64,000 bases of DNA, taken from assembly GCA_964016885.1 (NCBI GenBank), contig OZ024740.1, positions 399,466,001 to 399,530,000 of the forward strand. Direction: 5' to 3'. Positions 4,955 through 61,732 of this stretch are shown here, one piece after another (the stretch's first letter is position 1; every line of letters starts with the position of its first letter). The position numbers and the translations under genes are program-made. A model generated the notes under the pieces. That model was not told the DNA's origin. It did not search any database and was given only the letters and a program-made list of their open reading frames with translations. This DNA is from Eledone cirrhosa. Lineage: Eukaryota.

Positions 4955-6937
4955 CTTTGAGTCTCAGTCATTGATGTTATTTAACTGGAAAGTTTATTGA
5001 AATGAATATCAAGCCGCTACCTGCAGCCCCAGATATTCAGGACGTATCGGAGGGTTCTTGCTGTTCCCAGCAAGCATGCCTTTTGAAGTGTTCCAAAAAG
5101 CGGGGCTGGACTAATCTTCCTTTATAGTGAGTCTGGGCTAGGTGTTTACACTCAGATACAATGTGAGCCACAGTCTCCTCTCTCTCTCTCTCTCTCTAGA
5201 TCCTACGCAGTGGGCTAGCCTCCTCCTTGTAAATATGGTGTTTCACCCACTTCATTCAGAGGGCCTGCTCTTGCGCAGCCATTAGCATTCCTTCTGTAGC
5301 CTGTTTAAGGTCTCCTCTTTTTAACCAGTTCCATGTTTGTGGATATCTAAATTCAGTTTTCTTAAAGAAGGTATAATGAAGGGATTTTTCATGAAGGTTG
5401 CTCTTCCTCCTTGGACATCCCCTGGTCTATTGTCTTCTCCTTCAGTACAATTTTGAACATTGGCTCCCTACTATCAGTCACGTATTTGTGCAGGTTGTTT
5501 TTCTCCATCTGAACACAGTCCTCTATGCTGATAAGACCTCTTCCACCTTCAGATCTCTTTAAGTAGAGTCTATCGACATCACTCCTCTTGTGAAACATGT
5601 TGTAGATAGTCAATAGCTTCCTAGTCTTCCTATCCATTTCTTTTTGTTCAGCAACATTCCATTTCAGATTCCCCCACTGTACCTAATAATAGACACAGCT
5701 CGGGAATTAACTGCACTTATGACATTCCTACTATTTAGATGTGATTTTAATACGCTCCTTACTCTCCTTATGTACTCAGATCTTATCAATTCCTTAATTT
5801 TTTTGTTCTTGATGTCATCTGCCTCCAGAACACCTAAATATTTGTATCCTTCTTCAGTGTCAATTTTCTTTATCATCTCACCTGTTGGTACCTGGATTCC
5901 GTTGCTTCTGCTCAATTTACCCCTCCTCATCACTAGGACTCCACACTTATTAATACCAAATTCCATACATATATCATTGCTGAAAATACGGACAGTGTCA
6001 ACAAGTACATCCAACTCCTTCTCACTCTTCCCAAAGAGTTTAAGATTGTCCATGAAGAGAAGGTGGTTGATTGTAAGCTCTCTTTTTCCCAACTTGTATC
6101 CTGCTCTCACTTTTCGCAATATAATGGTCAGGGGTATCAGGGCAAGGACAAACAGCAGAGGGGACAAACTATCTCCCTGGAAGATACCTCTCTTGATCTT
6201 CACGCCTCCCAAGGATTCTCCAGCCGATGTTAACTCTGTTTTCCAGGACTTCATACTTTTGTTCGACAACTGTCTGATGTTATCTGCCACCTTGAAGATC
6301 TTCTAGATTACCAGAACTGTGGTACCTTTTGTCAACCACTCTGGTACCTCACCCGACATCAAGCAGTCATTGAACATGGTTGTCAGTTTCGGGTGAAGGG
6401 ATGTTAAATTTTTAATCCAATAACCCTGCAGACCATCTGGGCCTGGTGATTTCCAGTTGGTTAGTTTTTTGGCCTGCCTTTTAAGAATTTCAATTGTGAT
6501 ACTCAAATCAGTTTGTTGGTGTGCCTGTTCACTATCTCCTTTTGTACTGTCTCAATCCACACTGCCTGACTATTATGTTCAACATCCTGCTCCCATATTC
6601 CTCTCCAGAATATCTTAGTCTGTTCCGCCTCGGGGATCAAGTTGTTGCCTCTTTCTTTCCCTTCAAGCTGTGCAAACAACATCTGGTTGTTGTCAAACAT
6701 GCGGTTCTGTCTATACTGACTGACTCTGCTCTCATACCGCCTAATCTTTGCACTTTTTGGTACAATGCGTTGCTTCAGTTCCTCTATGATAATATTTAGC
6801 TTTTCCCCCCTAGTTTTATACTTTATTTCCAATCTATTTTTAGTGTCTAAGTTTTGTAATGTCCCATTCAGTAGGGACTCAAGCTTTCCAATGTCTTTTC
6901 TCATTTCCTTGATTTGACCATTCAGTCGTTTCTTCCA
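4955..6937 (-). mobile_element. 5'-truncated, internally deleted R4/Dong-like non-LTR retrotransposon
   Basis: NWKSPGPDG, RGIFQGDSLSPLLF, HLLFMD, YKYLG, DVDRLYLKRSEGGRGL motifs across broken ORFs; (TTA)n at both ends. Confidence 0.85.
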
Positions 6938-6999
6938 TATTATTATTATTATTATTATTATTTATACTGCTGTAATTGCCTAAGACAAGCTCTTTGAAT

Positions 7000-9286
7000 T
7001 CAGTTGTGCCATGTTCTTTACAATAACATTGCTATTAATTCCTTTCAGGTTTTTTCTGTGCATATGCATGCATAGGTGTGTGTATGCTTAATGGCTACTG
7101 TATAAAAGTATTCTATTTTCATTTATTAGAAGCGAAGTAGATTTCGCATAAAGTTGACATATAAAAAGAGACCTGCATATAATAATTTTCATGAGAAAAA
7201 AAAATGATGTAATACTAAGGAAAAGGTGTGGTGGTGAAGCTAGTGGTAGAAGTGTGGGTTGCTAACATCTGTAATATGCAAGGCATGGTTGAAAAAGAGA
7301 CATTAAAAACAAACCCAGAATGAATGATTATTCTTCTCACAGAGTTAAAATATGCTTTGATTTGTTCAGTGCCCAATCTACAGAAATAATTCATCTTATG
7401 ACACAAAGGGACTCTTCTATTGAAATACTAACAGGTTGTATTAAATTTCAGAAATACATCTTTGTAAACATTTAAAATATGAGAAAAAAAAAAAAACAAC
7501 AATGTTTTTTCGTTAGTAGAAATAGAAAAAAAAAACAATAACAAAAAACAAAGAGGAAGAAGAAGAGCCAAGTGTTTAGAGGAGACAAAAACGTTGCTTC
7601 AGAGAAATACAAAAGAATGATAGAGAGAATACAGCAGATTTGTTTGTATTATGACTTTTTAGTTCTGTTTTACATTAATATATATTGTATTAATAGTAGG
7701 GTTAGTGGTGAGAGCTATATATATATATATATATATATATATAAGAATTGAATATTAGTAGAGAACAGTTAAAGCAGAGAGAGTGGTAAAGAACAAAAAA
7801 AAAAAAATGAATGCATTGGATATCATTAATTCTATAGCATCAGAAATGAAAACCCATTCAGTTAGATATTATTATTTTTATGATCATCATCATCATTATT
7901 ATTGTTAAAACTATGTAATACTATATAAAATACAGAACAATTTTTCTAACTGAAATATATTTCAGTTTGATATAAAAGCTTTTTTTTTTTGTATATAGGC
8001 ATGGGAAGAATGACAAAGAATCAGAAAATTATCTGATGGTTTTATTGCTAAAAATATAAAAAAAAGTGTGCCTATGTGTGTGTAATGGTGATGAGGGTGG
8101 TGAATGTGTGTGTGTGTGTACATGGGGGGGCACTATAAATAATAGGAATAAAAAAACTGTAATAATAACACATAAAAAAATATAATAAAGTAAAACATCA
8201 AAGGTTGATGTCAGGAAAATTGTGTAGAAATAGAATTTAGTCAAAATACAAGCTGGATAATATTGCATTTTTAATATTTTTTTGTTTATTTTTCTAATTT
8301 TTTTATGTATTTAAAAAAGAACACACACACGTATGTATGTATAAAAAATATATTCATTCTTTTTTAACTGACTACATTAAGGAAAGACATAACCCATATA
8401 TTTCCAACATGCTACACAACTTTCAGAGTAAAAAGCCTTACAAAGCTATAATAAAACATTGACAACATAATCAGAGATTATACAAAAATAAATATAAAGC
8501 CATAAAAAATATATATCGATATAAAAAAAAACATTAAAGAAAGGGGGGAAAATGGTATATATCATTTATTTTTTTGTTTTCTACCCTGAGTGAAAAAAAA
8601 ATTTTGTGGCAATTTTATGGTGCAACATTAACTATTTGATTTTAGAATTGTTCAAACACTTGGGTGGTGATCGTGGTGGGAAGAGATTATGATGATATAT
8701 TTTTTTTATATATATAAACACACACATATATATAAACGCAGTTTTTTTTTATACCTCACCAGTTAACGTCTAATCTTTGAACAGACACCTCTCAGATGTT
8801 TTACACTGCATACACACGTAGTGAGAGAAAAAAAATAAGACACTGCGTGGTGCAAGTATATTAAATGTGTGTGTAAAGACAGAGGGAATGAGTATATTGT
8901 GTGATCTAAAAATTGTATATAAACATGCAAGTGCACTACATATACACACCCATGCTCACAAAAAATACAGCTACAAATGCACATACACACACCTGGGCAG
9001 AATGAATGTCTTTACAGTATGGTGTGATTACCTAGTGGTTGCAGGGGAGTTAAGTAGTTAAATTGTTTTGGGGTGTTGTGTTCTGAATTACGTAAGTTAC
9101 TATAATGAAAAGTGAATGCGAAATTCTATAAACAATTACTTTTTATTTTATACTAAACAATCATGGATGTGGCATTAAAGAATGAGTCACTTTGGTTTTA
9201 GAGAAATTAACTCCAGTTATATAACCAAATCTCTCACATAAACAACAACAACTGTACATGCAAACACCTAAATCTTTATCCCATCA
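7000..9286 (-). other. Putative long 3' UTR / TE-depleted region of host gene
   Basis: No recognisable TE. U-rich on the minus strand, with minus-strand AATAAA (plus tttatt) near 9142, 8565, 8285, 8042 and 7122. Confidence 0.3.
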
Positions 9287-27762: not shown

Positions 27763-29199
27763 TATCATCATCATCAGGTTTAGCGTCCGTGTTCCACGCT
27801 TGCATGGGTTTGGACGGGGGTTTTCCCACTTGAGGCAAGAGTGGTTGTCTTGCTCGCATAGGACTGTCTGGCGGGTTTTCTACAGTTGGATGCCCTTCCT
27901 AACACCAACCACATTTACAGTGTGGGGCTGGGAGGTTTTTACCGTGTTGCCTACACGGCCACATTACAGCGTGGACTGTCTGGCGGGTTTTCTACAGCTG
28001 GATGCCCTTCCTAACACCAACCACATTTACAGTGTGGGGCTGGGAGGTTTTTACCGTGTTGCCTACACGGCCACATTTACAGCGTGGACTGTGTGTTTTT
28101 TGTCGTGACACCTACACGATCTCATTTGTTTCGGCCTGGATGTTGTGGGACCAACATAACTTTACATTGAAAGGGGCGGTGTGGGTGGGGTGGAGGTGGT
28201 GGGACGGGGGTGTGTTTTGATAGAGGTGCCTACTGACTGTAGTAGGTTTTTACTTTGTATTTAGGTAAGGCGGGTCTTCTCTATTACTGAGTACCGCCAA
28301 AGGTCTCGGTCCAGTGACATTGTCTTGGAGAGGTGTAAGCGTGTGAGGTCGGAATTTATCAGCTCGTCCCATGTTTTTCTGGGTCTGCCTACTCCGTGGC
28401 TACCGTCTATCTTTATTGCCCTGCACTTTGTTATACAGCTGTCGTCTTTCATGCGCATCACGTGACCGTACCAACGTAGCCTTCTCTCGAGTAAACAACA
28501 TCTGATCCCTCTTATTTCTAATTTTTTCCTTAGTTCGTTTATGCTTTGCCGTTCACGTATATTACTATTGCACATCCAGCGGAGCATGCAAGCTTCGTTC
28601 CTCTCTAGTCTGCGTATATCCTCTGCACACAATGCCCAGGTCTCACTGCCATGCAGCATTGCTGTTCGTATGCAGGCATCGTATAACCTGCCTTTCATTT
28701 TTAGGGAGAACCCTCTAGCGGCTAATAGTGGTATAAGCTCTCTGAACTTTTTCCATCCAGTTCTGACTCTAGCTACTGTACTTTCAGAGCACCCTCCCCC
28801 ACTGCTGATTTTGTCACCCAGATAACGGAAGCTGTCCACTATTTCTATAGAACCCTCTGCGCAGTTGAAGGAGCTAGTATTTTGTGGGCACTTGCTGCTA
28901 CTTATTGCACCAGAGCACCGGCCACATGTAAAATCTATGTTCTTAGTTAGCTTACCTGTGATCCCACTACATCTTTTATGCACCCATACTTTGCATTTGG
29001 GACATAAAATGGAGTTTCTACCTACGCCTTTCCTACACACTGAGCATGGCCATTTCCCCGATGGGACCGCCGCCTTATTTTCTTTCCTACAAACTAGAAC
29101 TTTAGTCTTAGCCAGGTTAATTTTAAGGCCTTTTGATTCTAGGCCGTGCTTCCACGTTTGGAATTTCTTCTCTAGTTCGGTCATTGATTCAGCTATGAG
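27763..29199 (-). mobile_element. RTE family B, 5'-truncated (ORF 28261-29184)
   Basis: 307-aa ORF homologous to the C-terminal third of the intact RTE, including the PHD-like finger; duplicated 3' UTR unit; (GAT)n tail. Confidence 0.92.
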
Positions 29200-29209
29200 T
29201 ATATATATA

Positions 29210-29871
29210 TATAAAGAATTAGTATATCTACCAACATATTTATACAGATGTATACTTACACTAGCAAATATATAGGTTTTGTCTTAGTAACTTTGTGGTT
29301 CAATACAAAGGGATGCAGAACAATTATATGAAAGACGTAAAATAAGAAAATTATATAATTGTTCTGCATCCCTTTGTATTGAACCACAAAGTTACTAAGA
29401 CAAAACCTATATATTTGCTAGCATAAGTATACATCTGTATAAATATGTTGGTAGATATACTAATTCTTTATAATTATCTCCAAATTATTTTGTTGAGCAA
29501 AAATCTGCCAAATTACTACTGTGGTTCATAGTATTAGCCTGGCTACTGTCTTTTTAACACCCCACTCCTCACTGATTAACCTCAATGTCACGTGATTGAT
29601 TCTTTTGAATTTGCCACCAACCAAGAAGGCAGTGATTTTTTCAATGTCTTGGAATTTAGTCCCCGCTTGCTCTTTTCCATCCACTGAATTATTTTTGTAT
29701 AAGTTTCCTGTGTCCGCGCATCGCCAGGAATCTTAGCCGAGAATGACTTCCTGCTGAAGAAAGGTTTCTCCATGATCTCCATTTGAAGACTATGTATATC
29801 CCCTTTCAGAAACTAATTAGTTGGAGTGAAATTTAAGTAAGTTAATTACTATAATTTTCTTATTTTACGTC

Positions 29872-37985: not shown

Positions 37986-40900
37986 AATTTTTCCCTGCTG
38001 TATTAGCGATAAATTTTCGAGGGTTTCTCTTAGTAGCTTTTTCATGTCGTTAATATTATGATGTTCCCTGCTGTATTAGCGTTAAATTTTCCCTGCTGTA
38101 TTAGCGATAAATTTTCGAGGGTTTCTCTTAGTAGCTTTTTTCATGACGTTATTATTGTTAATTTTACTGATGTAGTATTAACTTGGATATTTACCATGCG
38201 ACCCTCAGTTCCTACCTCACAATTTCCCTCCCCCCCACCCCCACTCACCACCATAGTCTATTCGACCAATCAAACCTAGCATGCCATTTCCACTGCTGCT
38301 GCTGCTACTACCTGCCTAACTAACTCTCTCCTCCTCTGGCGCATCCCAACACACCCTGCCATTACCCCACCACCACTGTCCTTCTAGCCCTCAATTTTCC
38401 CACCGTTATGGATGGATGAGCTGGGAATACACGAGCAACTCTGAATCAATAGATGAAATATGAATCTGCGAGCTACCAAGCACCCACGTGAAGCGCCAAC
38501 CCAGAGACCCTCCCCTACGAGTGTCGACAAATGCCCAAAACTCCGAGTTGGTACCATCAATGTAGGCTCAATGAAAGGAAGAGCAGGAGAAATCGTAGAA
38601 ATGCTAGAGCGAAAGGAAGTTGATGTATGCTGTGTGCAAGAGACTAGATGGAGAGGAGGGTCTGCTAGAGTCCTTGTAGGAAAAAGCCAGTGCTACAAAT
38701 TTTTCTGGGTGGGAAATGACGATGGGATGGGTGGTGTAGGTATACTATTAGCTGACAAGTGGGTAGATAAAGTAATCTCAGTGTACAGGGTAAATGCAAG
38801 AATCATTAAACTCAGACTAGTCCTGAATAAGACAATTACCACAATAATATCAGCTTACGCACCCCAATCGGGGCTGCCAGACGAACTTAAGGATAGGTTT
38901 TACGAGTCCCTAATACACACTACTGCTCTAACAGACGACAAGGACTTCCTAATCATTGCAGGAGATTTTAACGGACACGTAGGTAAACACTGCGACGGCT
39001 TCAATAGAGTACATGGAGGCCATGGAGTTGGCACAAGGAATGAGGAAGGATTCAGACTTCTAGAATTCTGCGACGCCAATGACATGTCGATATGTAACAC
39101 AAACTTTAAAAAACCCGACAACCACCTGATCACCTATAGATCAGGGGAGCACTCTAGTCAGTTAGATTTTATCCTCATCAGAGGACGTGACAGATGGACG
39201 GTCGTAAACACAAAAGCCTTCCCTAGTGAGGAATGTACATCCCAACATAGCTTAGTTGTCAGCGACCTCACGGTCAGAACTAGACGAGCCCTGAAACAGA
39301 GGCCAACCTGGAGAAGAAAGATCTGGAAGCTGAAAGTCCCCTCAACCAGTAACAGATTTAAAGATATTTTACTCAACGCCTACGACAGTAAAGAAGAACA
39401 GATAGAGACATTTAACGTAGAAGAGAACTGGGAGTTCCTAAAAAATAACTTACTAGAGGCGACGGATGAGGTTTGTGGCTGGAGTAAGACCTCAAGCAGG
39501 AGGAGAGTGACTTGGTGGTGGAACAATAAGGTAGATGAAGCAGTCAAGGCCAAGAGACAGGCATGGAAAGAATGGAAGAACGGGGGGAGCAGGGTACATT
39601 ACATAGAGACCAAGAGGGAAGCTAGGCGACAAGTATACTTAGCTAGGAGGGAAGCAGAGGATAGAAAATTCAAGCATGTTTTACAACGTGAGGACCAGAA
39701 ACAGGAGGTATTCAAGATTGCGAGGCAGTGTGTCAGAGATAGTTGTGATGTCATTGGAGAGAAGTGTATCCGGAATGATAAAGGTGAGCTTGCCCTCACA
39801 AGTGCTGAGAAGAAAGATGCATGGAAGAGTCATTATGATAGATTACTAAATGAGGAGAATGCATGGGAAGAAGAGACCCTACCCCACGTAGACCCTATAG
39901 AGGGACCAGCAGTACAAGTCAGCGGCAGCGTAGTAAGTAAGGCAATCAGAGATATGAAGATAGGGAAGGCAACCGGTCCATCGGGTATAGCTGCCGAGAT
40001 GCTGAAGGCATCTGGGTCTGTAGGTCACACTATAACCACACGTATCGTTAACCAGGTAATACTAGAGGGGGCCATACCAAAAGATTGGTGCAGTAGCATC
40101 ATTGTCAACTGCTACAAAGGTAAAGGCGATGCACTAGATAGAGGAAACTATAGAGGTATAAAGTTGATGGACCAGGTCATGAAAGTAACAGAAAGAGTTA
40201 TAGCACAGCTGATTAGGGACCGGGTGAATATAGACGAGATGCAATTTGGGTTTGTTCCAGGGAAAGGCACCACTGATGCGCTCTTCCTTGTGAGGCAATT
40301 ACAGGAAAAGTACCTAGCTAAAAGTAAGCCACTCTACTTGGCATTTGTCGACCTTGAGAAAGCCTTTGACAGAGTTCCACGTGCAGTAATCTGGTGGGCT
40401 CTTAGAAAACTAGGAGTAGATGAATGGCTTGTGAAAGCGGTACAAGCCATGTATAGGGGAGCAGTCAGCAAAGTTAGGATTGGCAATGAGTATAGCGAGG
40501 AATTTAGCGTACAGGTTGGGGTCCACCAGGGCTCTGTTCTTAGCCCTCTCCTGTTCATCATAGTCCTGCAGGCAATAACGGAGGAGTTTAAGACCGGATG
40601 CCCATGGGAACTCCTGTATGCTGATGACCTCGCACTCATAGCTGAATCTATGGTAGAACTAGAGAATAAATTCCAAACCTGGAAGCAGGGACTAGAGAGA
40701 AAGGGCCTCAAAGTCAACATGACAAAGACTAAGGTCCTTATAAGTAGACGAGAAAACAGAACCCAGATCCCCTCAGGGAAATGGCCTTGCTCAGTATGTA
40801 GGAAAGGTGTAGGTAGGAACTCCATTCTCTGCCCCAAATGCAAACAATGGGTACACAAGAGATGTAGCGGGATCTCAGGAAGCTTAATTAAGAATGTAGG

Positions 40901-41880
40901 ATTCACATGCAGCAGCTGTGCTGAAACAGCAAGCAAACAGCCACAGGAAACAAGTACCACCAATCTCTGGGAGGGCCCTGTAGAAACAGTAGACAGCTTC
41001 TGCTACCTAGGTGACCGAATTAGCAACGGAGGTGGGTGCTCAGAAAGTACAATAACTAGGGTAAGAACGGGATGGAAGAAGTTTAGGGAACTACTACCAC
41101 TGCTAGCTGCAAAAGGCTTCTCCCTCAGAATGAAAGGCAGACTGTATGATGCGTGTATCCGAACAGCGATGTTGCATGGTAGTGAGACCTGGGCGCTGAA
41201 GGTGGAAGACTTACGTAGATTAGAGAGAAACGAAGCCTGCATGCTCCGATGGATGTGTAACAGTAATATACGTGAACGACAAAGCTTAAATGAATTGAGA
41301 GAGAGACTGAGCATAAGAGGAATCAAATGCTGCGTGCAGGAGAGGCGGTTACGCTGGTATGGACATGTGATGCGTATGAAGGATGACAGCTGCATAAAAA
41401 GGTGCAGAGCACTAGAAGTTGATGGAAACCGCGGAGTGGGGAGACCCAAGATGACTTGGGATGAGGTGATAAAAGCCGACCTTACCCAACTACACCTCTC
41501 AAAGTCAATGACACACGACCGTGACTTCTGGCGTCACGCAGTAATACAGGGTACCCGACCTCCCATGGGTACATGCTGAAGCATATAAACAATATGCCCC
41601 CCCCCCACCGCAAGGTGGTCGTGGAGGTGCCACGGCAAAAAAGCACCCAGCCCACACTGTAAAGTGGACGTGTAGGCGCCACGAAAAAGCACCCAGCACT
41701 CACTGTAAATGAGGTTGGTGTTAGGAAGGGCATCCAGCTGTAGAAATCAAGCCAGATCAGTTCCTGTATGAGCAAGGCATGGTCAGCCGACCAGACACTG
41801 CCCACAACAGGACAACCCGTCTAACCCATGCTAGCGTGGAAGAACGGACGTAAAACGGTGATGATGATGATGATGATGAT
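37986..41880 (+). mobile_element. Full-length RTE-clade LINE
   Basis: Duplicated 5' motif, single intact ORF, 3' UTR and (GAT)n tail; (TA)n on both sides. Confidence 0.95.
38460..41579 (+). CDS. RTE ORF: APE endonuclease + reverse transcriptase with PHD-like finger (1039 aa)
   Basis: GTINV, VQETRW, SAYAP, GDFNGH and LDFIL (APE); NYRGI, FVDLEKAFD, GVHQGSVLSP and YADD (RT); C4HC3 insert. Confidence 0.95.
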   Translation: MNLRATKHPREAPTQRPSPTSVDKCPKLRVGTINVGSMKGRAGEIVEMLERKEVDVCCVQETRWRGGSARVLVGKSQCYKFFWVGNDDGMGGVGILLADKWVDKVISVYRVNARIIKLRLVLNKTITTIISAYAPQSGLPDELKDRFYESLIHTTALTDDKDFLIIAGDFNGHVGKHCDGFNRVHGGHGVGTRNEEGFRLLEFCDANDMSICNTNFKKPDNHLITYRSGEHSSQLDFILIRGRDRWTVVNTKAFPSEECTSQHSLVVSDLTVRTRRALKQRPTWRRKIWKLKVPSTSNRFKDILLNAYDSKEEQIETFNVEENWEFLKNNLLEATDEVCGWSKTSSRRRVTWWWNNKVDEAVKAKRQAWKEWKNGGSRVHYIETKREARRQVYLARREAEDRKFKHVLQREDQKQEVFKIARQCVRDSCDVIGEKCIRNDKGELALTSAEKKDAWKSHYDRLLNEENAWEEETLPHVDPIEGPAVQVSGSVVSKAIRDMKIGKATGPSGIAAEMLKASGSVGHTITTRIVNQVILEGAIPKDWCSSIIVNCYKGKGDALDRGNYRGIKLMDQVMKVTERVIAQLIRDRVNIDEMQFGFVPGKGTTDALFLVRQLQEKYLAKSKPLYLAFVDLEKAFDRVPRAVIWWALRKLGVDEWLVKAVQAMYRGAVSKVRIGNEYSEEFSVQVGVHQGSVLSPLLFIIVLQAITEEFKTGCPWELLYADDLALIAESMVELENKFQTWKQGLERKGLKVNMTKTKVLISRRENRTQIPSGKWPCSVCRKGVGRNSILCPKCKQWVHKRCSGISGSLIKNVGFTCSSCAETASKQPQETSTTNLWEGPVETVDSFCYLGDRISNGGGCSESTITRVRTGWKKFRELLPLLAAKGFSLRMKGRLYDACIRTAMLHGSETWALKVEDLRRLERNEACMLRWMCNSNIRERQSLNELRERLSIRGIKCCVQERRLRWYGHVMRMKDDSCIKRCRALEVDGNRGVGRPKMTWDEVIKADLTQLHLSKSMTHDRDFWRHAVIQGTRPPMGTC

Positions 41881-41994
41881 ATATATATATATAATATATA
41901 AGATCAAAAGATGGTTAAAAGAGTTCCATGTATTTTATTATGCGCATTTCAAAAACAAATATCATCATGCAATAATATTTGTGTTTTCATCAGA

Positions 41995-42240
41995 TATGAG
42001 CGTTAGATCATCTGGGTATAGGAGTTCCCATGGGCAGCCAGTCTTGAACTCCACTGTTATAGCCTGAAGGGCAATAATAAATAATAGGGGGCTAAGAACA
42101 GAGCCCTGATGAACACCAACTTTTACGCGAAAATCTTCACTATATTCGTTAATTCTAACCTTGCTGACTGTTTCTTTATACATGGCTTGTATAGCTCTCA
42201 CAAGCCATTCGTCAACACCTAGTTTTCTAAGAGCCCACCA
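41995..42240 (-). mobile_element. RTE family B internal RT fragment
   Basis: WWALRKLGVDEW...GVHQGSVLSP...ELLYPDDLTLI. Confidence 0.88.
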
Positions 42241-42309
42241 GGATATATATATATATATACATACATACATATATATATTTACATACATACATATATATAT
42301 ATATATATA

Positions 42310-44096
42310 CAACGAAGGAAATGTGGTAAGGAACCAGGTGGACCATAACGCACCAAAGTACTCAATACTTGAGGTAGTAGAGTGGGTAATAGGAACCAGT
42401 AAGACCCCGACAGCTGAGCTCAAGCCGTTTCGACGGCTAATTCTGGACTAAATGAAAATTTATCCTGGTATTTAAATAGCCGATCTTCTCAAGGGGTAAT
42501 TCCATATATGGTCAAAGTGATTGTCAAAAATCAGTAGTAATTCTGTGGTTGCAAATTAGTAGGGGAGATGGTGGCTAAACCTGCCAGTAGGAGAAAGAGG
42601 GGAGGGGGTGGAGTAGACCCAATCAAGCGTTGGTAGTGCCAGCTACAGCTGGGCATGAGGTCAAAGAAGATACAGGGGAGGGGGAGGGGGGGGAAGTCGG
42701 AACGGTAGGTAGAACAATGGGGGGTAGAAATAGGAAAGAAAAAAAAAATACTGAGAGTGAAGAAAAGCAAATAAGTGTAAAGAAAAGTAAAGTAAATTAA
42801 ATACTACGACCTAGGTGTCAGGCTATTGTTAGGCTAGAATAAAATAAATAAAGAAAGAAAGAAAGAAGTAAAAAAATAAATAAATGAATAAATAAGGAAA
42901 TAAGTAAGAGAACTAGGTGGGACGGATAAGGCAAGGACCCTTTTAAGAGGTATAAGTACGTAAATGATACGGTGACGGGTCAACAAAAGGGGCCAAAATA
43001 CTAAAGAGACTACCACGAAATAAACAATAAAGGTTTCCATCCCGGGCCAGCAACGACCCAGTGCAGCAAAGTGAACTTGTACGAGATAATAATTCTGAGT
43101 CCCGAGAAAAATATATACTAATGCTAACTCTAAAAGATCTAAAACAAGCTACATGAAAGTTCTTACGAAATAAAGGTAGAATACGGAGAAATAAATTCAG
43201 AATCCACCCCGCCCAGAAGAAAAGCGAAGCAAGAAATACTGAAACAAAAAAATAAGGCATGTGCCACTAAGAAATATAGAGGGCACAGAGAATAGTGGGA
43301 GCGGTCGGAAAAAGGGGGAAAGTATCCGGGGTCTAAGCCAGCTGCTATAAAGGGCGGAGTCCGCCAAATCTATCAAAGACTAGGGGAGGGGGGTGGGGGT
43401 ACTAAGGCTACATGGGGCCAAAGGGCAGCCTCGGGTGGGCGAGAAAAGACGCCGACAAAGGAGAAGAGCTGGGGTAGAAGGACAAAGGGGAGAGGGGGGA
43501 AGGAAATAAAGGAAGCGATAAAAGAATACAAAGAAGATCTTACGTCTTCCTTGGCAAGCAGGGGTTACCTATTGCAAAATCGGCAACTGGGGTGTTATAG
43601 CCCTAGTCTACCCCCCCCCGGGTCATTATGGGGTTTGAGGGCGAGGTAAGTCCTACGCAATCTATGTTTACATGCAGTAACCAGTTCATCTTTCTTGTTT
43701 AGGAGTTGGTCCGTCGAAAACAGCATTTGTAAAGTTTCCTCCGAGCATAAATTGCACGGACGGCGTCCTCCCGTGTAAGAATTGGCTCTGGACAGTAATC
43801 TCCAAGTGAGATCATAGGTGATGTTGTTGTCCTTGAGGTCCCATATGTGGCCCGAAAGTGTAGTGGCGTGACGCCGGGCCGGGTTTCGGAAGGTATGTCT
43901 ATGTTGGTATAGCCGGGTCTTGAAGTCACATGCGGTAAGTCCTATATAGGCTTTGTTGGAGGTATCCGTCCTCACGTTGCACTGGTAGATCACATTACGG
44001 TCTCTGCATCTATTGTCGAGTGGGCAAATAGATCTATCCGGGCAGTTACACCTCCTGGTCGGTTCTCCACTGCTAATTAGGTTATTTCTGCCATCG
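42310..44096 (-). mobile_element. Penelope-like element, 5'-truncated (left arm of palindrome)
   Basis: GIY-YIG ORF 43595-43993 (VIYQC...YIGLT...FKTRLYQH...CNLC) preceded by a CxC..CPL...C linker; long 3' UTR with hammerhead. Confidence 0.9.
42404..42497 (-). ncRNA. Type I hammerhead ribozyme, U3-A8 core variant
   Basis: Reverse complement of 45723-45816. Confidence 0.72.
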
Positions 44097-45831
44097 TCTC
44101 CTCTAACAACAAAAAACTCAACCCCGATGGCAGAAATAACCTAATTAGCAGTGGAGAACCGACCAGGAGGTGTAACTGCCCGGATAGATCTATTTGCCCA
44201 CTCGACAATAGATGCAGAGACCGTAATGTGATCTACCAGTGCAACGTGAGGACGGATACCTCCAACAAAGCCTATATAGGACTTACCGCATGTGACTTCA
44301 AGACCCGGCTATACCAACATAGACATACCTTCCGAAACCCGGCCCGGCGTCACGCCACTACACTTTCGGGCCACATATGGGACCTCAAGGACAACAACAT
44401 CACCTATGATCTCACTTGGAGATTACTGTCCAGAGCCAATTCTTACACGGGAGGACGCCGTCCGTGCAATTTATGCTCGGAGGAAACTTTACAAATGCTG
44501 TTTTCGACGGACCAACTCCTAAACAAGAAAGATGAACTGGTTACTGCATGTAAACATAGATTGCGTAGGACTTACCTCGCCCTCAAACCCCATAATGACC
44601 CGGGGGGGTAGACTAGGGCTATAACACCCCAGTTGCCGATTTTGCAATAGGTAACCCCTGCTTGCCAAGGAAGACGTAAGATCTTCTTTGTATTCTTTTA
44701 TCGCTTCCTTTATTTCCTTCCCCCCTCTCCCCTTTGTCCTTCTACCCCAGCTCTTCTCCTTTGTCGGCGTCTTTTCTCGCCCACCCGAGGCTGCCCTTTG
44801 GCCCCATGTAGCCTTAGTACCCCCACCCCCCTCCCCTAGTCTTTGATAGATTTGGCGGACTCCGCCCTTTATAGCAGCTGGCTTAGACCCCGGATACTTT
44901 CCCCCTTTTTCCGACCGCTCCCACTATTCTCTGTGCCCTCTATATTTCTTAGTGGCACATGCCTTATTTTTTTGTTTCAGTATTTCTTGCTTCGCTTTTC
45001 TTCTGGGCGGGGTGGATTCTGAATTTATTTCTCCGTATTCTACCTTTATTTCGTACGAACTTTCATGTAGCTTGTTTTAGATCTTTTAGAGTTAGCATTA
45101 GTATATATTTTTCTCGGGACTCAGAATTATTATCTCGTACAAGTTCACTTTGCTGCACTGGGTCGTTGCTGGCCCGGGATGGAAACCTTTATTGTTTATT
45201 TCGTGGTAGTCTCTTTAGTATTTTGGCCCCTTTTGTTGACCCGTCACCGTATCATTTACGTACTTATACCTCTTAAAAGGGTCCTTGCCTTATCCGTCCC
45301 ACCTAGTTCTCTTACTTATTTCCTTATTTATTCATTTATTTATTTTTTTACTTCTTTCTTTCTTTCTTTATTTATTTTATTCTAGCCTAACAATAGCCTG
45401 ACACCTAGGTCGTAGTATTTAATTTACTTTACTTTTCTTTACACTTATTTGCTTTTCTTCACTCTCAGTATTTTTTTTTTTCTTTCCTATTTCTACCCCC
45501 CATTGTTCTACCTACCGTTCCGACTTCCCCCCCCTCCCCCTCCCCTGTATCTTCTTTGACCTCATGCCCAGCTGTAGCTGGCACTACCAACGCTTGATTG
45601 GGTCTACTCCACCCCCTCCCCTCTTTCTCCTACTGGCAGGTTTAGCCACCATCTCCCCTACTAATTTGCAACCACAGAATTACTACTGATTTTTGACAAT
45701 CACTTTGACCATATATGGAATTACCCCTTGAGAAGATCGGCTATTTAAATACCAGGATAAATTTTCATTTAGTCCAGAATTAGCCGTCGAAACGGCTTGA
45801 GCTCAGCTGTCGGGGTCTTACTGGTTCCTAT
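44091..45831 (+). mobile_element. Penelope-like element, 5'-truncated (right arm of palindrome)
   Basis: Same GIY-YIG ORF (44228-44611), open upstream through IVSSNNKKL..RCNCPDRSICPLDNRC. Confidence 0.9.
45723..45816 (+). ncRNA. Type I hammerhead ribozyme, U3-A8 core variant
   Basis: acccc-TTGAGAA-ga(t)cggcta...tagccgtc-GAAA-cggc(ttgagctca)gct-GTC-ggggt; all three stems pair. Confidence 0.72.
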
Positions 45832-46241
45832 ATATATATACATACATATATATATATATACATATATATGGTTTGTATATCTCTCTCGCCATGAAATCCA
45901 CCCAGCTTATGCTGACCGGATTACCATGTTGCTTGTTTTTTGCTATCTTTGCATTGCTTTCAGCCTTCTATGTTGTTTACTTGTCTCACTCGCTTTACGC
46001 GATTTACTTGTCCCAATAGCTTTATTTAGCTATTGCTCGCACCAACCGGAGGTATATGATTTTTAATGCGATGAAATACCAATGAAGGTTGGAAAATCAC
46101 TGACGAAGGACTATTTTTATCATATGAAACCCATGTGCAACCACGCAGTATTCTTTCTTCTCATGTTTTTTATATATATATATATACACATACATATATA
46201 TATATATACATACATATATATATACATATATATATACAAAC

Positions 46242-48780
46242 ATGACTGTGGTGTTGCTGGACTATCAAAAAGCATTTGATAGTGTACCTTATGGGTGGAT
46301 TGTTAAGGCTTTACAGTTAGCCAAAGTCCCACAACCACTGGTAGCTGCTGTTGAACGTCTGATCAAGAACTGGTACACCAATTTGATCCTTAGAGGTGAG
46401 AAGGAGCAAGTTAAGACTGATAGGATACATTACCAGAAGGGCATCTTTCAGGGTGATAGCTTGTCAGTGCTACTCTTCGTTCTCTCACTAAATCCACTAT
46501 CTTACCTACTCAGGAAACAAGATGGACAAAGAAGTGGGTCCAGAAGTATCTCCCATCTTTTCTTTGTTGATGACCTGAAGTTGTATGGGCCAAATATCAA
46601 TGACATCAAGAAACAATTGGACCTCATTACACAATTTTCAACAGATATCAAAATGAAATTTGGTGAGTCCAAGTGTGCATATTTGGCAGTAAAACGTGGA
46701 AGAGCAGTGCCCTCCTCTAGAAATCTAGAGATGAACAGCCTGACAATACAACCTCTACAGTCAGGTGACAACTACAGATATCTTGGACAGGATGAGAATG
46801 TCAGATATGATGGACCCATAAATAAGGAGAGAACCAGAACTGAATACCTCATCAGAACTGTCAGCGTACAACAAATACATTGCCCACAATACTTATGCTG
46901 TGCCAATTCTAACGCCAACATTTGGCCTGCTGAACTGGTCATTGCAAGACCTAAGTGAGATGGATGTTAGAACTCGCAAACTTCTGTGTTACTGGGAACT
47001 TTAACATCAATGGTGATGTGGATAGGCTATACTTCTCACGCAAGGAAGCTGGCCGGGGTCTAAAATCCATATTAACATCATATGAGACCTGGATAGTAAC
47101 ACTGAAGCAACACCTGCAACAGAGGAAAAAGGTTGGCAACCATCTTGCCCAGGTTTATGAGCATGAAAAAAAAAATATCATTAGAATAGCCACGGATCTG
47201 GAGGAGAGATATGGAATAAAGTCTGATATAAATTTCTCACCCAGAGAAATCGGAAGATCCTATTCAATGTTCAAACAAGATGAAAAAATTGACCAACTTA
47301 CAGAAAAAGTTGTACACTTTTTTCAACATTCTATACACTATCCTTAGAATCTGCTGTATAGATTTCACTTTCAACGCTTGACTGGGTTTCCCCCACTCCC
47401 TCTTTGTTCTACCAGTAAGTTCAGCTACCCCTACCTTCCACTAAATACCATGATAGAATCATCTGTCTTTAGAACAAATTTTTGACCAATCTTTTTGACA
47501 ATTACTATCTTCCCACATATGGAATTACCCCCTGAGAAGTTCGGCTATTTATTTACCAGGCTAAAAATTCTTATTTAGTCCAGAATTAGCCGTCGAGACA
47601 GCTTGAGCTCTGCCGTCGGGGTCATACTTGTTCCTATTACCCACTCTACTACCCTAAGTATTGAGTACTTTGGTGTGTTATGGTCCATCTGGTTCTTTAA
47701 CACATTTCCTTTGTTATATATATACATTTATATATATATACATACATATATACATATATACATACATATATTTATAAATACATATATATATACATACATA
47801 TATACATATATACATACATATATTTATAAATACATATATATATACATACATATATATTAAAAAATTGACCAATTTACAGAAAAAGTTGTGCATGGATACT
47901 TGAGATATAAAAAACAGACCATAGAGGGGATAAACCACTAAAAAAGCCTGGCATGGAGTTCCGACAAGTTTATGACATCACACCTTGAGGGATATCTCTA
48001 TGCAATACAGGAACAAGAACTCTCTACCAAATATCTGCTGCACAAAAGAGGAGGGCCAGCAGCTGACAATAAATGTAGGCTATGTAAAACAAAGATCGAG
48101 GATGTAAGCCACATTGTTGCCAGCTGCGAAAGAATGTCATCTCGCTACTACCTGCCCATGAGACACAATGGGATAGCTAGAACCATCTGGAATGCACTTC
48201 GGAAAACAAAATTAACAACAAACGAGGAAGAATATATTGAGACTGATGGCACTAAGGAATACTGGTGGAACCTGAAAATAAAAACTGCTACCAAATTAAA
48301 GCACAACCGGCCTGATATTGTTGTTTGGGACCACACATTGAAAACGTGTTCTGTTGTGGAGATCAGCTGCCTACTTGATGTAAACGTTGTCAGAAAAATA
48401 CAGGAGAAGGAGGACATCGACGGACCATTGATGAGGAGTTTACAAATCCAGTATCCAAGATACACCTTTAGCTTCATACCCATCATTATTGGAGCTACGG
48501 GTTATATACCAACCTGCTTGGACCAAAGTATGACTGAACTTGGATTTGCGGACAAAGAGCGCAGCTCCCTAATTCATAGTCTACAAATGGCTGCGATAGC
48601 TGGCACCTTCAAAATTTGCAAAACATTCTTGCGATTCAAGGGATAACAATTTCTTTTCTTTTACAACCTTGCCACCAGGAAGGTGGCCGGTCAAAAAAAT
48701 ATACTCGAAATTAAGAGAAAGCGATAACATATATATGATGATGGCTGCCCCCTCGTTATCGAGTATGGCCATTGCACAAT
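46242..48780 (+). mobile_element. R4/Dong-like non-LTR retrotransposon (RT + CCHC + restriction-like endonuclease), 5'-truncated and interrupted
   Basis: LDYQKAFDSVP, GIFQGDSLS, HLFFVDDLKLY, CRLC..E...HIVASC, RH, RPDIVVWD...VVEISC; poly(A)/(TAA)n tail. Confidence 0.9.
47314..47858 (+). mobile_element. Penelope-like 3' terminal fragment plus (TA)n inserted in the R4/Dong element
   Basis: Diverged copy of the palindrome terminus; 31-bp direct repeat at 47283-47313 and 47859-47889. Confidence 0.8.
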
Positions 48781-48825
48781 AAAAAAAAAAAAAAAAAAAA
48801 AAAAATTTAAAAATAATAATAATAA

Positions 48826-48868
<43 letters not shown>

Positions 48869-48885
48869 AAAAAAAAAGGGAAAAG

Positions 48886-48916
<31 letters not shown>

Positions 48917-49036
48917 TACACATATATATATATACACATACATATACACACACACATACATACACATACATACATATATACACACACACATACATACACA
49001 TACACTCACACATATATACACACATACATTAATAAC

Positions 49037-49079
<43 letters not shown>

Positions 49080-49158
49080 GCAATAATAATAATAACGACA
49101 ACAACAATAATAATATACATATTCATATATATATACACACACACGCACGCACATAAGC

Positions 49159-49195
<37 letters not shown>
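48781..49195. repeat. Compound microsatellite block: poly(A), (TAA)n, (TA)n, (CA)n
   Basis: Directly visible. Similar (TA/CA)n tracts at 17660-17760, 18400-18690, 20465-20570, 47715-47858 and 51481-51732. Confidence 0.95.
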
Positions 49196-49199
<4 letters not shown>

Positions 49200-51545
49200 T
49201 GATAGCAACTAACAGTGCTGCGATCGAATGTGGCTTTTTAGCCCAGCCAATGATCTAAAATGTCTTGCACAGAGTCGGCAACCAAAACACTTACTGGGAA
49301 TAGTCGGCTGTGGTTGGAGTTCGTGTACTTTTGCATGTCGCTTGAGTCCTCCTGCTGATTTACATTCTCTACCACATGTTTGACAAGCATGATGAGTAGC
49401 ATCTCCAACAGCAGCCTGGTAGTCAACCACTGGTCTTACTTTATGACTGCGAAGATGACTTTCGAGTCCAGCTTTGCTTAGGCAGAGTCTCGCACAGACG
49501 CTGCATGTCAGAAACATAGGAGGACCCTCGCCGTCTGGAAGTGCAACAGCAATACCCTTCCTCACGTCCCGCTTTACTTTCTCGTGTGCGATTCGAGATG
49601 CCTCAAAGGCAACTTTTCCCTCATATACAGTCTTTCTCCATTTATTACGATCAGCAGCAATATTTTCCCATGTATCAGCAGAGATGTTAGCGTCCTTCAG
49701 AGAGGCCTTCAAGGAATCCTTATACCTCTTTTTTGGTTTATGTGGCGGTCGTTTTCCTTTAACCAACTCTCCATAGAAGAGTTGTTTTGGTATTCTAGAA
49801 TCCTTCATCCTGGCAAGGTGACCACTCCAACGGAGTCGCTGCTTAAGCACAAGAGCTTCTATACTGTCACACATAGAGCTTTCCAAAATCTCGACATCAC
49901 TGATGTGGTCCCTCCAGCGAACGCCATGTATCCGTCTGAGACACATCTGATGGAAACGCTCCAATTGCTTAAGGTGGCGTCGATATGTGACCCAGGTCTC
50001 GCAGGCATAAAGAAGACAAGAGAGTACACATGCCCTGTACACCCTTACCTTTGTCCTCCTGCATATGTCTCGCCGACCCCAGAGTCGCCTTTCTAGCTTT
50101 CCGAAAGCATCACTTGCTTTCCTAATCCTAAGTGAGATTTCACCGTCAAGGTTGCCGCATCGACTGACAGTGCTTCCCAGGTAGACAAACTGATCAACCA
50201 CTCCAAGTCGTTTGCCATACACATAGATGTTTGGTTCAGTGTACTGCCCACCAGGTGCAGGTTGGTACATGACGACGGTTTTCTTGAGACTGACAGTCAA
50301 ACCCAGGGCAGTGCAAGCGTCAGAAAATACATTCAAAATGTGCTGCATATCACTCTCTGTGTGCGCTACAAGATCGCAATCATCTGCATACAAGAGGTCT
50401 CTTATGACTGATGTAAACACTTTTGTCTTCGCAGCAAAGCGCCTGATGTTAAATATGCTGCCTGAGGTTCGATATCGGATGTAAACACCATGCTCGCAAT
50501 TCCTGAATGCAATACAGAAAACCATTGCAAAGTATATGGCAAACAGGGTCGGTGCTGGAATATCCCCCTGTTTCACTCCATTTTTTACTGAGATAGGCTC
50601 CGACATGTTACCTCCGACATTAACCCAAGCCTTCATGTCGTCATGGAAAGACCTAACTAAAGCAAGGAACTTATCAGGGCAACCAAGTTTCTGGAGAACC
50701 TTCCATAATGCATCTCTGTTGACAGTATCGAAAGCCTTTGTCAGATCGACAAAAACCTGATACAGATCCAAGCCCTGTTCAATGCACTTCTCCTGGAGCT
50801 GTCTAGCTGAGAAGATCATATCAGTAGTGCCGCGTCCAACACGAAAACCAGATTGACTTTCAGGAAGGACACAATCTGCAATGTGTGTCAGCAGACGGTC
50901 CAGAAGCACCCTACATAAAACTTTCCCCACGACAGAAAGCAATGATATACCTCTGTAGTTCCCACAATCATTCCTGTTACCCTTTCCCTTGTACAAGACC
51001 ACCATTACTGCATCTCTCCAGTCCTCAGGCACGGATTCATTAGCCCATATCCTTCCAAACAGAGAGTGAAGATGTTGCAGGAGTCTCTCACCACCATATT
51101 GTAGGAGCTCTGCATGTATGCCATCCATACCTGGAGATCTTCCACTGTTCAGCTTCGAAATAGCCACTGCAACCTCCACAAGTGTCGGAGGTTCTGCGAG
51201 AGCTACTTTCACAGGACTTTCCGGAATGAGATTGAGGAAATCTTCACTGACGACAGACGGCTGATTCAAAAGATCATCAAAGTGCTCTCGCCACCTTCGT
51301 AGAATTCCCTGTGAGTCACGAAGAAGTTCTTTGCCATCCCTGCTGCGAATCGGTGTCACCAGAGAAGAAGACGGTCCATAAACCTCACGCAAGAGACTGT
51401 ACAACAGCTTTGTGTTATTGCAATCAGACGCAGTTTGTATCTCACCAGCCTTCTCACTCCACCACTGATCCTTCATCCAACATATATATACATACATATA
51501 TATATACATACATATATATATACATACATATATATATATACATAC

Positions 51546-51578
<33 letters not shown>

Positions 51579-52345
51579 CATACATATATATATACACATA
51601 CATATATATATACACATATATATATACATACATATATACACATATATATATATACATACATATATACATACATATATATATACACATATATATATATACA
51701 TACATATATACATATATATACATACATATATATGGTGGCTGCCAACTCGTTTTCGAGTACGGCCACTACTTTATATCCATGTAGGAGAACCCCTACCGAT
51801 GCGCTGAACGAGTGTGACATTTTAGTCCAGCCAGCGACTTGAAAACTCTGGTACAAACACTACACTTGTGACAATTATTGACACATAGTGCTGAGCCCAT
51901 GGTTCCATGTGACGACAAGTGCAGAGAGATCTCTAGATATAAAGCAATGCCTGTGCCGTGAAACTTTTATAGTGAGCAAAGGCACTGCACAAAGCCAGTC
52001 CCACTCTCTTAACCAAGATGATATTTACCAAAAAGAAGAACAAGTCAACATCATTGGATACCGTCAGGGTTGCAGGTGTTATATCAGAGTTTTCCTTCTC
52101 CTAGAATTCTGCCTTTACAAAGGCTAAGGGGTCATCTCTCCCGGTGATTTTGGATGGCCATTGACTCTTAAGAGCTCCTTTGCCCTTTGACAGGTTTTGT
52201 TTTTAGTCCTGCAGGATGTCCAAAGTCACCCTCCTCACCAAGAAACCTTGGTGGGGTTGCCAGTTTAGTCGCCAACGACCCGACCATGAGACAGGTTGTA
52301 CTGGGATACATGTTACCAGTAGCACCAACTGGTGACCTGACATCA
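49200..52345 (-). mobile_element. BovB-like RTE LINE lacking endonuclease, with three C-terminal C2H2 fingers
   Basis: Open RT from about 51480 to 49209 (GNYRGISLLS, FVDLTKAFD, GVKQG, LYADD); three CxxC...HxxxH motifs; GC-rich 5' UTR-like segment 51733-52345. Confidence 0.88.
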
Positions 52346-52454
52346 ACATACATACATATATATATATATACATACATACATATATACATGATGGTTGCTC
52401 CCTCGTTATCGAGTATGGCCAATACACGAGAACCCCCCCCCCCACAATAATAAC

Positions 52455-52486
<32 letters not shown>

Positions 52487-52492
52487 TGTTCA

Positions 52493-53222
52493 TATGCAGG
52501 TATCATACAACCTGCCTTTCATTTTTAGGGAGAACCCTTTAGCGGCTAATAGTGGTATAAGCTCTCTGAACTTTTTCCATCCAGTTCTGACTCTAGCTAC
52601 TGTACTTTCAGAGCACCCTCCCCCACTGCTGAAGAAACAGTCAGCAAGGTTAGAATTAACAACAAATATAGTGAAGAGTTTAGTGTAAAAGTTGGTGTTC
52701 ATCTGGGCTCCGTTCTTAGCCCCCTACTATTTATTATTGCCCTTCAGGCTATAACAGTGGAGTTCAAGACTGGCTGCCCATGGGAACTCCTATACGCAGA
52801 TGATCTAACGCTCATAGCTGAATCAATGGCTGAACTAGAGAAGAAATTCCAAACATGGAAGCACGGCCTAGAATCAAAAGGCCTTAAAATTAACCTGGCT
52901 AAGACTAAAGTTCTAGTTTGTAGGAAGGAAAATAGGGTGCCGGTCCCATCCGGGAAAGGGCCATGCTCAGTGTGTAGGAAAGGAGTAGGCAGAAACTCCA
53001 TTTTATGTCCTAAATGCAAAGTATGGGTGCATAAAAGATGTAGTGGGATCACAGGTAAGCTAACTAAGAACATAGATTTTACATGTGGCCGGTGCTCTGG
53101 TGCAATAAGTAGCAGCAAGTGCCCACAAAACATTAGCTCTTTCAATTGCACAGAGGGTTCTATAGAAATAGTGGACAGCTTCCGTTACCTGGTGACAAAA
53201 TCAGCAGTGGGGGAGGGTGCTA
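52493..53222. mobile_element. RTE family B copy with internal inversion
   Basis: Minus piece 52493-52630 (SSGGGC...YDTCI) abuts plus piece 52631-53222 (ETVSKV...YADD...ISSGGGC). Confidence 0.85.
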
Positions 53223-60686: not shown

Positions 60687-60689
60687 AAA
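60687..60689 (-). CDS. SOWAH: Candidate 3-nt microexon (TTT, Phe) of SOWAH-like gene
   Basis: Minus strand reads ...ctctccggtctccactaacag|TTT|gtaagt. Supplies the F immediately before TALHW, phase 0. Confidence 0.6.
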
Positions 60690-61729
60690 CTGTTAGTGGA
60701 GACCGGAGAGATATTCACCAAGATTCGGAATAATTCAATATTTCATTATAAAATGGGGAAAAAGAACAAATGAGATAGTATGAAATACATTTGAAAATTA
60801 ACACAAAATGCACATGCATGGATACATACATATATACAAATTTGTTTAATTAAATACATGGAAGTCGCTGAAAATTATAGGATATAAATTTAAACTGTTA
60901 TATACAGAACATTGTCACTAGGCACACTACTTCATTTTCGTTGCCATATAATATTTTAAAATATATTTGGGTGTTATTGCTTACAACCTCTTCTAGCATA
61001 TAGTTCGCTTAAAAACAATCACCAGATATCTATTTCAAGCTTTCTTTTTAGTTGGTATCTACTTCAAGAACTGGATGTCCTTCCTTGGTTATACTCTTTT
61101 TTTATGGTCTTGCAGTTGCGAAGATAGAACTTGCCTTGTGAGATTTGATTTAGGATTGCAGTGTGCAACTAATCTGAAGTGTTCATTGATTACTCTTTAA
61201 AACAGTTCTGTATCATAGTATCATGGTTTCTGGCAGTTTACTGTGTGCAACACACTCCTCCCACAATAAATCTCATTTTGAGAAACCATATAAAATTGTT
61301 TTAAAGTGTTTGTATTTATCCAAAAACCTTCTATCATAGTTTTATGAATGAACCTTTATGTTCCAAACATCAGCTTGAAAATTCAAAAATTAGTTATATT
61401 ACTAAATTCTTGATTATGTTTTGAAAATGGTTTGAAAATTATAGGTAGTGCCTTTCATGAAAAGTACGGCAATGAAAGAATTAATAGATAAATATTTTTG
61501 TGACACATAGGAACACCATTCTGCTTACAATGACCTATTTTCAGGAAACCTGTCTGAGATTGAACATAATACAAATTAGATAGTTTCAATAAATTCTGCA
61601 GTTAATCTAATAAATGCTTTCCTATTGGCAACAACAGACATTCTGTAACAGGAATTCTGTTAATGCAAGAAGTTCTTTCAAAACTTTACATATCTTAGTG
61701 TAAAACATCAGAAAAAGAAATTTACTTAC

Positions 61730-61732
61730 ACC
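61730..61732 (-). CDS. SOWAH: Candidate 3-nt microexon (GGT, Gly) of SOWAH-like gene
   Basis: Minus strand reads ...gacatcacttcag|GGT|gtaagt, with a pyrimidine-rich upstream tract. Supplies the G of the ankyrin G-F-T-A-L-H motif, phase 0. Confidence 0.6.

Follow-up and report, generated by a model that had tools for sequence, protein, structure and literature searches.

Homologues of the microexons considered here are annotated in FlyBase for the sowah gene of Drosophila melanogaster. Table S4 of Pang et al. 2021 (PMC8042270) gives five sowah microexons: a 12-nt exon (ME119), two exons of a single codon each, GGC (ME3) and TAT (ME2), a 6-nt exon (ME19) and an exon of 27 nt. All five are classed as constitutive with PSI = 1 in Table S5 of that work, using data from fly head, body and gonad. 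The sole sowah row found in the supplementary data of Torres-Mendez et al. 2022 (PMC8797185) concerns a different, 46-nt eMIC-sensitive exon, and the fly homologues of the octopus microexons are not among the sowah rows found there. For short human microexons a sequential order of splicing, downstream intron first, has been proposed (PMC10250204), and the same sequential removal of introns was seen for most of the plant microexons tested (PMC8831610). Ancestral microexons are a subject treated in bioRxiv 10.64898/2026.09.05.749416. A search confined to main texts found none that names microexons of sowah or microexons of one codon, and deep conservation of the sowah microexons may or may not be in print. 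Sowah introns are reported to contain Iroquois enhancers, and tetrapods to have swapped Sowah for retrocopies (PMC12311624 and PMC5803294, reporting Maeso et al. 2012).

The window, that is the whole stretch of Eledone cirrhosa DNA analysed, is 64,000 nt long (G000:C1:399466001-399530000, contig OZ024740.1). The best animal matches of its TALHWAAKHG exon were the SOWAH proteins of Octopus sinensis (91%) and Argonauta (87%), and the TALHW exon was 97% identical to O. sinensis SOWAH. With its short ankyrin domain, in which TALHWAAKxG and TPLH repeats occur, the gene belongs to the SOWAH (sosondowah) family. Exons matching the O. sinensis SOWAH protein lie in the order of that protein along 287 kb, between window coordinates 243,281 and -43,275. 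An N-terminal winged-helix domain (PF25877) is carried by protein P0003 as a precomputed annotation and is absent from the local Pfam scan list; residues 1-43 of P0003 match the first exon of the E. cirrhosa gene at 79%.

An earlier note on this DNA had described the minus-strand sequences cag-GGT-gtaagt and cag-TTT-gtaagt as two exons of one codon each, about 1 kb apart and 27 kb from TALHWAAKHG, which would supply the two missing residues of an ankyrin repeat. Both sequences were checked and found as described, and the measured introns agree with the spacing. The features of the region, in the order of transcription, are as follows.

Upstream of the hairpin, minus strand: exon ending in ...AKER, followed by gtaagt; ends in phase 0 and encodes no G-F
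Intron from the AKER exon to the SFIN exon: 125,873 nt
65369-65358 (L002:1369-1358, window numbering continued), minus strand: 12-nt microexon S-F-I-N, phase 0/0, 1.4 kb past the window end
Intron from the SFIN exon to GGT: 3,625 nt
61732-61730, minus strand: 3-nt microexon GGT (Gly), cag acceptor, gtaagta donor; read from the sequence, counterpart of the fly GGC exon ME3
61729-60690, minus strand: intron from GGT to TTT, 1,040 nt
60689-60687, minus strand: 3-nt microexon TTT (Phe), cag acceptor, gtaagta donor; counterpart of the fly TAT exon ME2, Tyr in O. sinensis and D. melanogaster
57945-57943, minus strand: candidate 3-nt exon TAT (Tyr), GTAGGC donor; a possible alternative to the Phe exon, or chance
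Intron from TTT (60689-60687) to the TALHW exon: 27,289 nt
33397-33308, minus strand: 90-nt exon, phase 0/0, TALHWAAKHG...VDQKA; encodes the body of ankyrin repeat 1
Intron from the TALHW exon to the second TTT: 9,545 nt
23762-23760, minus strand: 3-nt microexon TTT, the Phe of the second hairpin; corresponds to F in the KT-F-A-GF of O. sinensis
Intron from the second TTT to GCT: 6,182 nt
17577-17575, minus strand: 3-nt microexon GCT, the Ala of the second hairpin; AAG acceptor and TGC at -21; corresponds to A in the KT-F-A-GF of O. sinensis
Intron from GCT to the GFTPLH exon: 1,569 nt
16005-15933, minus strand: 73-nt exon GFTPLH...IQTY, ankyrin repeat 2
14025-13945, minus strand: 81-nt exon (K)ANPNLRDHSG...ARCQ

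The flanking large exons leave exactly six residues open at the first hairpin and two at the second. All four RefSeq isoforms of O. sinensis SOWAH, X1-X4 (XP_029635954.1 and XP_036359357-9), read AKER-SFINGY-TALHW at the first position. At the second, KT-F-A-GF is present in X1, X2 and X4, with the Ala missing from X3. The identity and the order of G and F fit the proposal of the earlier note; its count does not, as the gap holds six residues (SFINGY in O. sinensis) rather than two, and the 12-nt exon, the second 3+3-nt pair and the candidate TAT triplet had been missed. The end of the upstream exon at AKER, the SFINGY-TALHW protein and the fly exons together support the reading that the G and the aromatic residue of the first SOWAH repeat are encoded by single-codon exons. 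The possibility that G-F is encoded in the upstream exon was ruled out, since this exon ends in ...AKER before gtaagt in phase 0. All microexon boundaries are in phase 0, so that any combination of inclusion keeps the frame, and the GTAAGTA donor is common to all five microexons (SFIN, G, F, F, A). They have AG/GT boundaries and encode residues present in the homologous protein. Judged from these sequence features, the triplets are very probably real exons.

The likeness to the fly gene is close. In D. melanogaster sowah, exons of 12, 3 and 3 nt also precede TALHW in the same order, G before the aromatic residue and in phase 0, with introns of 3,079 and 1,081 nt by the table coordinates (PMC8042270) against 3,625 and 1,040 nt in E. 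cirrhosa. The fly differs in having a single 6-nt exon (NG) at the second hairpin, where the octopus has two 3-nt exons (F, A), and in having Tyr in place of Phe; the introns flanking the group in E. cirrhosa measure 126 kb and 27 kb. The novelty implied by the earlier note was overstated, because the homologous exons are already in FlyBase. With those exons annotated and the residues present in the RefSeq protein of another octopus, a specialist would be only mildly surprised. The intron between the G and the aromatic exon, 1,040 nt in E. cirrhosa and 1,081 nt in D. melanogaster, is about 1,180 nt in metagenome locus L112 and about 90-135 nt in L055, L087 and L109, and the similarity of the first values may be a coincidence.

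In O. sinensis SOWAH the SFIN-G-Y and F-A residues were read from the protein sequences. This protein differs from the E. cirrhosa gene in having Y where the latter has F, and its isoforms X1-X3 carry a seven-residue insert, KHSLKIL; no 21-nt exon encoding KHSLKIL was found in the E. cirrhosa SOWAH gene. The SOWAH models of O. vulgaris and Argonauta are without all eight microexon residues. A search for shorter proteins found no cephalopod transcript across the first junction, and the search of protein representatives returned mostly long ankyrin proteins and no information on SOWAH. Hairpin loops of ankyrin repeats are part of the binding face. In P0003 the Pfam Ank profile begins at N282, with G283 at profile position 2. 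An AlphaFold model of P0003, built from 73 sequences, had pLDDT 97-98 over the block of repeats and was matched in Foldseek by DARPins and other ankyrin domains; in it a bridge between R278 and T285 encloses exactly residues 279-284, the six microexon residues. A model without the eight residues (P0011) kept its high confidence and lost this bridge. Since the alignment behind it consisted mostly of included forms, the P0011 model says little about stability and is weak evidence either way.

Conservation of the layout was assessed in a scan of metagenome contigs. It gave 80 loci, from which nine generic ankyrins were dropped; 21 loci had an intron before TALHW and 50 were contiguous there. Nineteen loci were inspected in detail, namely 17 of the 21 with the intron together with L104 and L119. 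Separate exons for G and for Y or F were present in five of the 19 (L055, L087, L091, L109 and L112). The full chain was seen in L109, with a 12-nt exon (DFTS), 3 nt for G and 3 nt for Y, followed by a 3-nt exon for H. G and Y triplets were found in L055, L087 and L091, to which springtail proteins are closest, and L055 and L087 also scored for a 6-nt NG exon. L112 has triplets for G, F and later another G, and its exon matches Exaiptasia SOWAH best (76% identity). Other loci showed partial forms: G-Y is fused into one 6-nt exon in L063, L119 has a fused first chain with T and G as 3+3 nt at the second site, L079 has a Y triplet and the 6-nt NG exon only, and L104 is contiguous at the first site. 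In L046, L056 and L057, which are insect-like and have enough flank, a G triplet was found and a canonical Y/F triplet was not. The remaining inspected loci had too little flank or showed no such exons. From these sequences, fusion of the exons probably happened piecemeal in several lineages, and the exon layout appears to be old and shared by octopus, insects, other arthropods and a sea-anemone-like locus.

Around the TALHW exon of six insect-like loci (L046, L047, L051, L054, L056 and L057) there are exon-like elements, 6 and 9 nt long on the upstream side and 3 nt on the downstream side, common to several of the six, with no canonical Tyr/Phe triplet; Bradysia models have G-D or Y at the hairpin position. 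On the long contigs of L045, L068, L083, L084, L101 and L107, SOWAH is without introns across the hairpins, which suggests several independent intron losses or retrocopies outside tetrapods.

The residues themselves are kept where they need not be spliced in. G-Y/F was found in 48 of the 50 contiguous loci, many of which are redundant and some of which may be transcripts. SOWAH proteins were also sorted by source label, with generic ankyrins excluded and with the included form as query, which favours included matches. Among 52 assembly-derived ORFs, two without a motif match were dropped, and 49 of the remaining 50, which are contiguous, kept G and an aromatic residue (one of the 49 being G-H); the exception, Logan ORF P0072, is shorter by one residue and has no G. 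The pair was kept in all 17 tetrapod- or coelacanth-type proteins. Among SOWAH gene models it was present in 25 of 62, and the lack of it in the other 37 agrees with the remark in the earlier note that gene models often miss such exons. The losses in gene models are mostly in exon units, database isoforms losing 1, 2, 5 or 6 residues, and RefSeq models of several flies and mosquitoes are without G or without G and Y.

The number of motif matches says nothing in favour of the exons. The bare motif YAGNNNGTAAGT was found three times against 1.27 expected, three or more being reached in 13 of 100 shuffles, and the count was therefore rejected as evidence for microexons. This chance-level count, together with the O. 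vulgaris and Argonauta models without all eight residues, would fit a reading in which the triplets lie in accidental occurrences of AG-NNN-GTAAGT within long introns, the residues being encoded by other exons or missing from E. cirrhosa. However, the context of the triplets is above chance and lifts the observation beyond the motif count. When the 32-kb interval was shuffled by mononucleotides 2000 times, a site with a G codon followed by one with an F or Y codon, each with YAG and GTRAG, arose in 8 of the shuffles. The AG-free zones ahead of the 3-nt sites for G, F, F and A are 74, 176, 94 and 215 nt (74-215 nt over all five microexons), and a zone of at least 74 nt precedes 2.5% of the minus-strand AGs in the window. 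The 287-kb gene has five AG-NNN-GTAAGT sites on the coding strand against one on the opposite strand. Four of the coding-strand sites give G, F, F and A, which is the order along the O. sinensis protein, and all four minus-strand sites in the window fit the residue class and order. The one AG-NNN-GTRAG site found in the 126-kb intron encodes Ser, and a genome search with 230-300 nt around the GGT and TTT triplets matched this locus alone. Given also that the layout recurs in distant animals, an accidental origin of the triplets is very improbable. At position -1 of the G and F donors stands T, which makes their exonic side less than ideal, and words resembling branch points lie unusually near the AG (-15 and -7).

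If the exons are real, their use could still be regulated, and the earlier note had suggested that combinatorial skipping tunes the hairpin. Under tissue control of the SRRM3/4-eMIC type, such skipping would tune ankyrin binding loops. Phase 0 throughout would allow it, every combination being in frame, and database isoforms do drop residues in units of 1, 2, 5 or 6. The octopus exons resemble neural eMIC microexons in being tiny and frame-preserving, in a predicted protein-binding surface and in long AG exclusion zones, an eMIC-type feature, as are strong donors in mammals (PMC8797185; bioRxiv 10.1101/2024.09.17.613571). TGC is present at -18 in SFIN and at -21 in the Ala exon, which also has an AAG acceptor and is skipped in one isoform. 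On the other hand, three of the five exons (G and both F exons) have no TGC within 40 nt of the acceptor, although the UGC motif is not universal among eMIC microexons either (74-79%, bioRxiv 10.1101/2024.09.17.613571). The fly homologues are classed as constitutive in the tissues covered by PMC8042270, the sowah row found in the PMC8797185 supplement concerns another exon, and the residues are retained in nearly all contiguous loci and ORFs. The suggestion of tuning by skipping was thus not upheld for the chain, and we regard it as quite unlikely. A second possibility is that TTT (60689) and TAT (57945) are mutually exclusive aromatic exons giving Phe or Tyr, or that TAT alone is used and TTT is minor. 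The TAT follows a CAG acceptor with a U-rich tract and a 61-nt AG-free zone, its flanks are nearly unique, and it would give the Tyr of O. sinensis isoforms X1-X4. Compared with the GTAAGTA of the five other microexons its GTAGGC donor is weaker, and an AG-free zone of at least 50 nt with a weak donor is not rare, being found at 4 of 87 minus-strand sites outside G, F, F and A (TAT included) and at 5 of 97 plus-strand sites. Exchange of F and Y by a point change is moreover common in the SOWAH family, and we consider an exon switch, or the use of TAT alone, unlikely. With its AAG acceptor and the one skipping isoform, the Ala exon (17577-17575) is the best candidate for real skipping or regulation. 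A mixed arrangement, in which an ancient, possibly pre-bilaterian constitutive scaffold carries one-residue regulation in octopods through a Phe/Tyr switch (60689/57945) and a skippable, possibly eMIC-controlled Ala exon (17577), is rather doubtful.

The best explanation is that both triplets are constitutive single-codon exons in an ancient chain of 12+3+3 nt predicted to encode the six-residue loop into repeat 1, and that a second 3+3 pair does the same before repeat 2; from the sequence evidence we give this a probability of about 0.78. The order of the microexons, their phase-0 boundaries, the GTAAGTA donors, the long AG-free zones and the match to the annotated octopus protein are direct observations. 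Each triplet would be picked by its strong donor and by the first AG after the long AG-free stretch, a combination which probably allows recognition without full exon definition. Because U1 pairing would cover the whole of a 3-nt exon, the flanking introns are probably removed singly, the downstream one first, and the sequential model described for other short exons probably applies to the octopus triplets. The working form is probably the mRNA with every microexon included, and annotation misses or leakage probably account for most of the "skipped" database isoforms. Annotation misses with some leakage fit the pattern of database losses better than a regulated code does, and RefSeq skipping models could reflect real minor reads. 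Several observations run counter to a constitutive chain: O. sinensis has Y where F stands here and the TAT candidate lies 2.7 kb downstream of TTT; O. sinensis X3 lacks the Ala, ORF P0072 the G, and fly and mosquito models G or G and Y; and L046, L056 and L057 have the G triplet without the canonical aromatic one. A constitutive chain of this kind would offer a natural system for studying how the spliceosome manages to include 3-nt exons in succession across introns of 1-126 kb, apparently without neural enhancers. It may rank among the oldest microexon chains in animals, and it is an annotation trap, the hairpin G and aromatic residue being lost from more than half of the SOWAH models.

Three further exon-like candidates were seen on the minus strand. 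A 10-nt candidate at 53249-53240, between the Phe exon and TALHW, has a strong pyrimidine tract and a GTGAGT donor; it would shift the frame and is a possible poison exon. A 9-nt candidate with an in-frame stop and a GTAAGC donor lies at 22215-22207, between the F and A exons, and could alternatively be a 3-nt TGT (Cys) through a second AG; neither form has a counterpart in the O. sinensis isoforms. The third, a 4-nt exon CTTT at 8445-8442, has a GTAAGG donor, a long AG-free zone and no protein support.

The locus may also resemble the Sowah-Iroquois regulatory block, in that an intron-rich Sowah gene with very large introns has a TALE homeobox exon on the opposite strand, 2.19 Mb from the SOWAH start (G000:C1:401.895 Mb). 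By its motif this homeobox may be Irx (Iroquois); a PDB search with it returned other TALE proteins only. Four TALE homeobox matches with near-identical scores were found (G000:C1:401895032, C3:224402858, C25:8752471 and C1:161931784), dispersed and unclustered, and one alone is near SOWAH.

Most of the 126-kb intron is filled by a tandem array of about 100 kb with units of about 48 bp, running from L002:1680 to L011 (about 65.7 to at least 164 kb in continued window numbering). The array ends about 310 nt before the 12-nt exon and yields long spurious repetitive ORFs. Within the window a long inverted duplication at about 42,200-45,900 shows the same translated stretches and donor contexts on both strands, and the GC skew flips inside it, at 44 kb. 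Decayed intronic fragments at about 5,200-7,000, 28,260-29,280, 39,900-42,450 and 48,100-53,200 resemble elements of the reverse-transcriptase (LINE) type.
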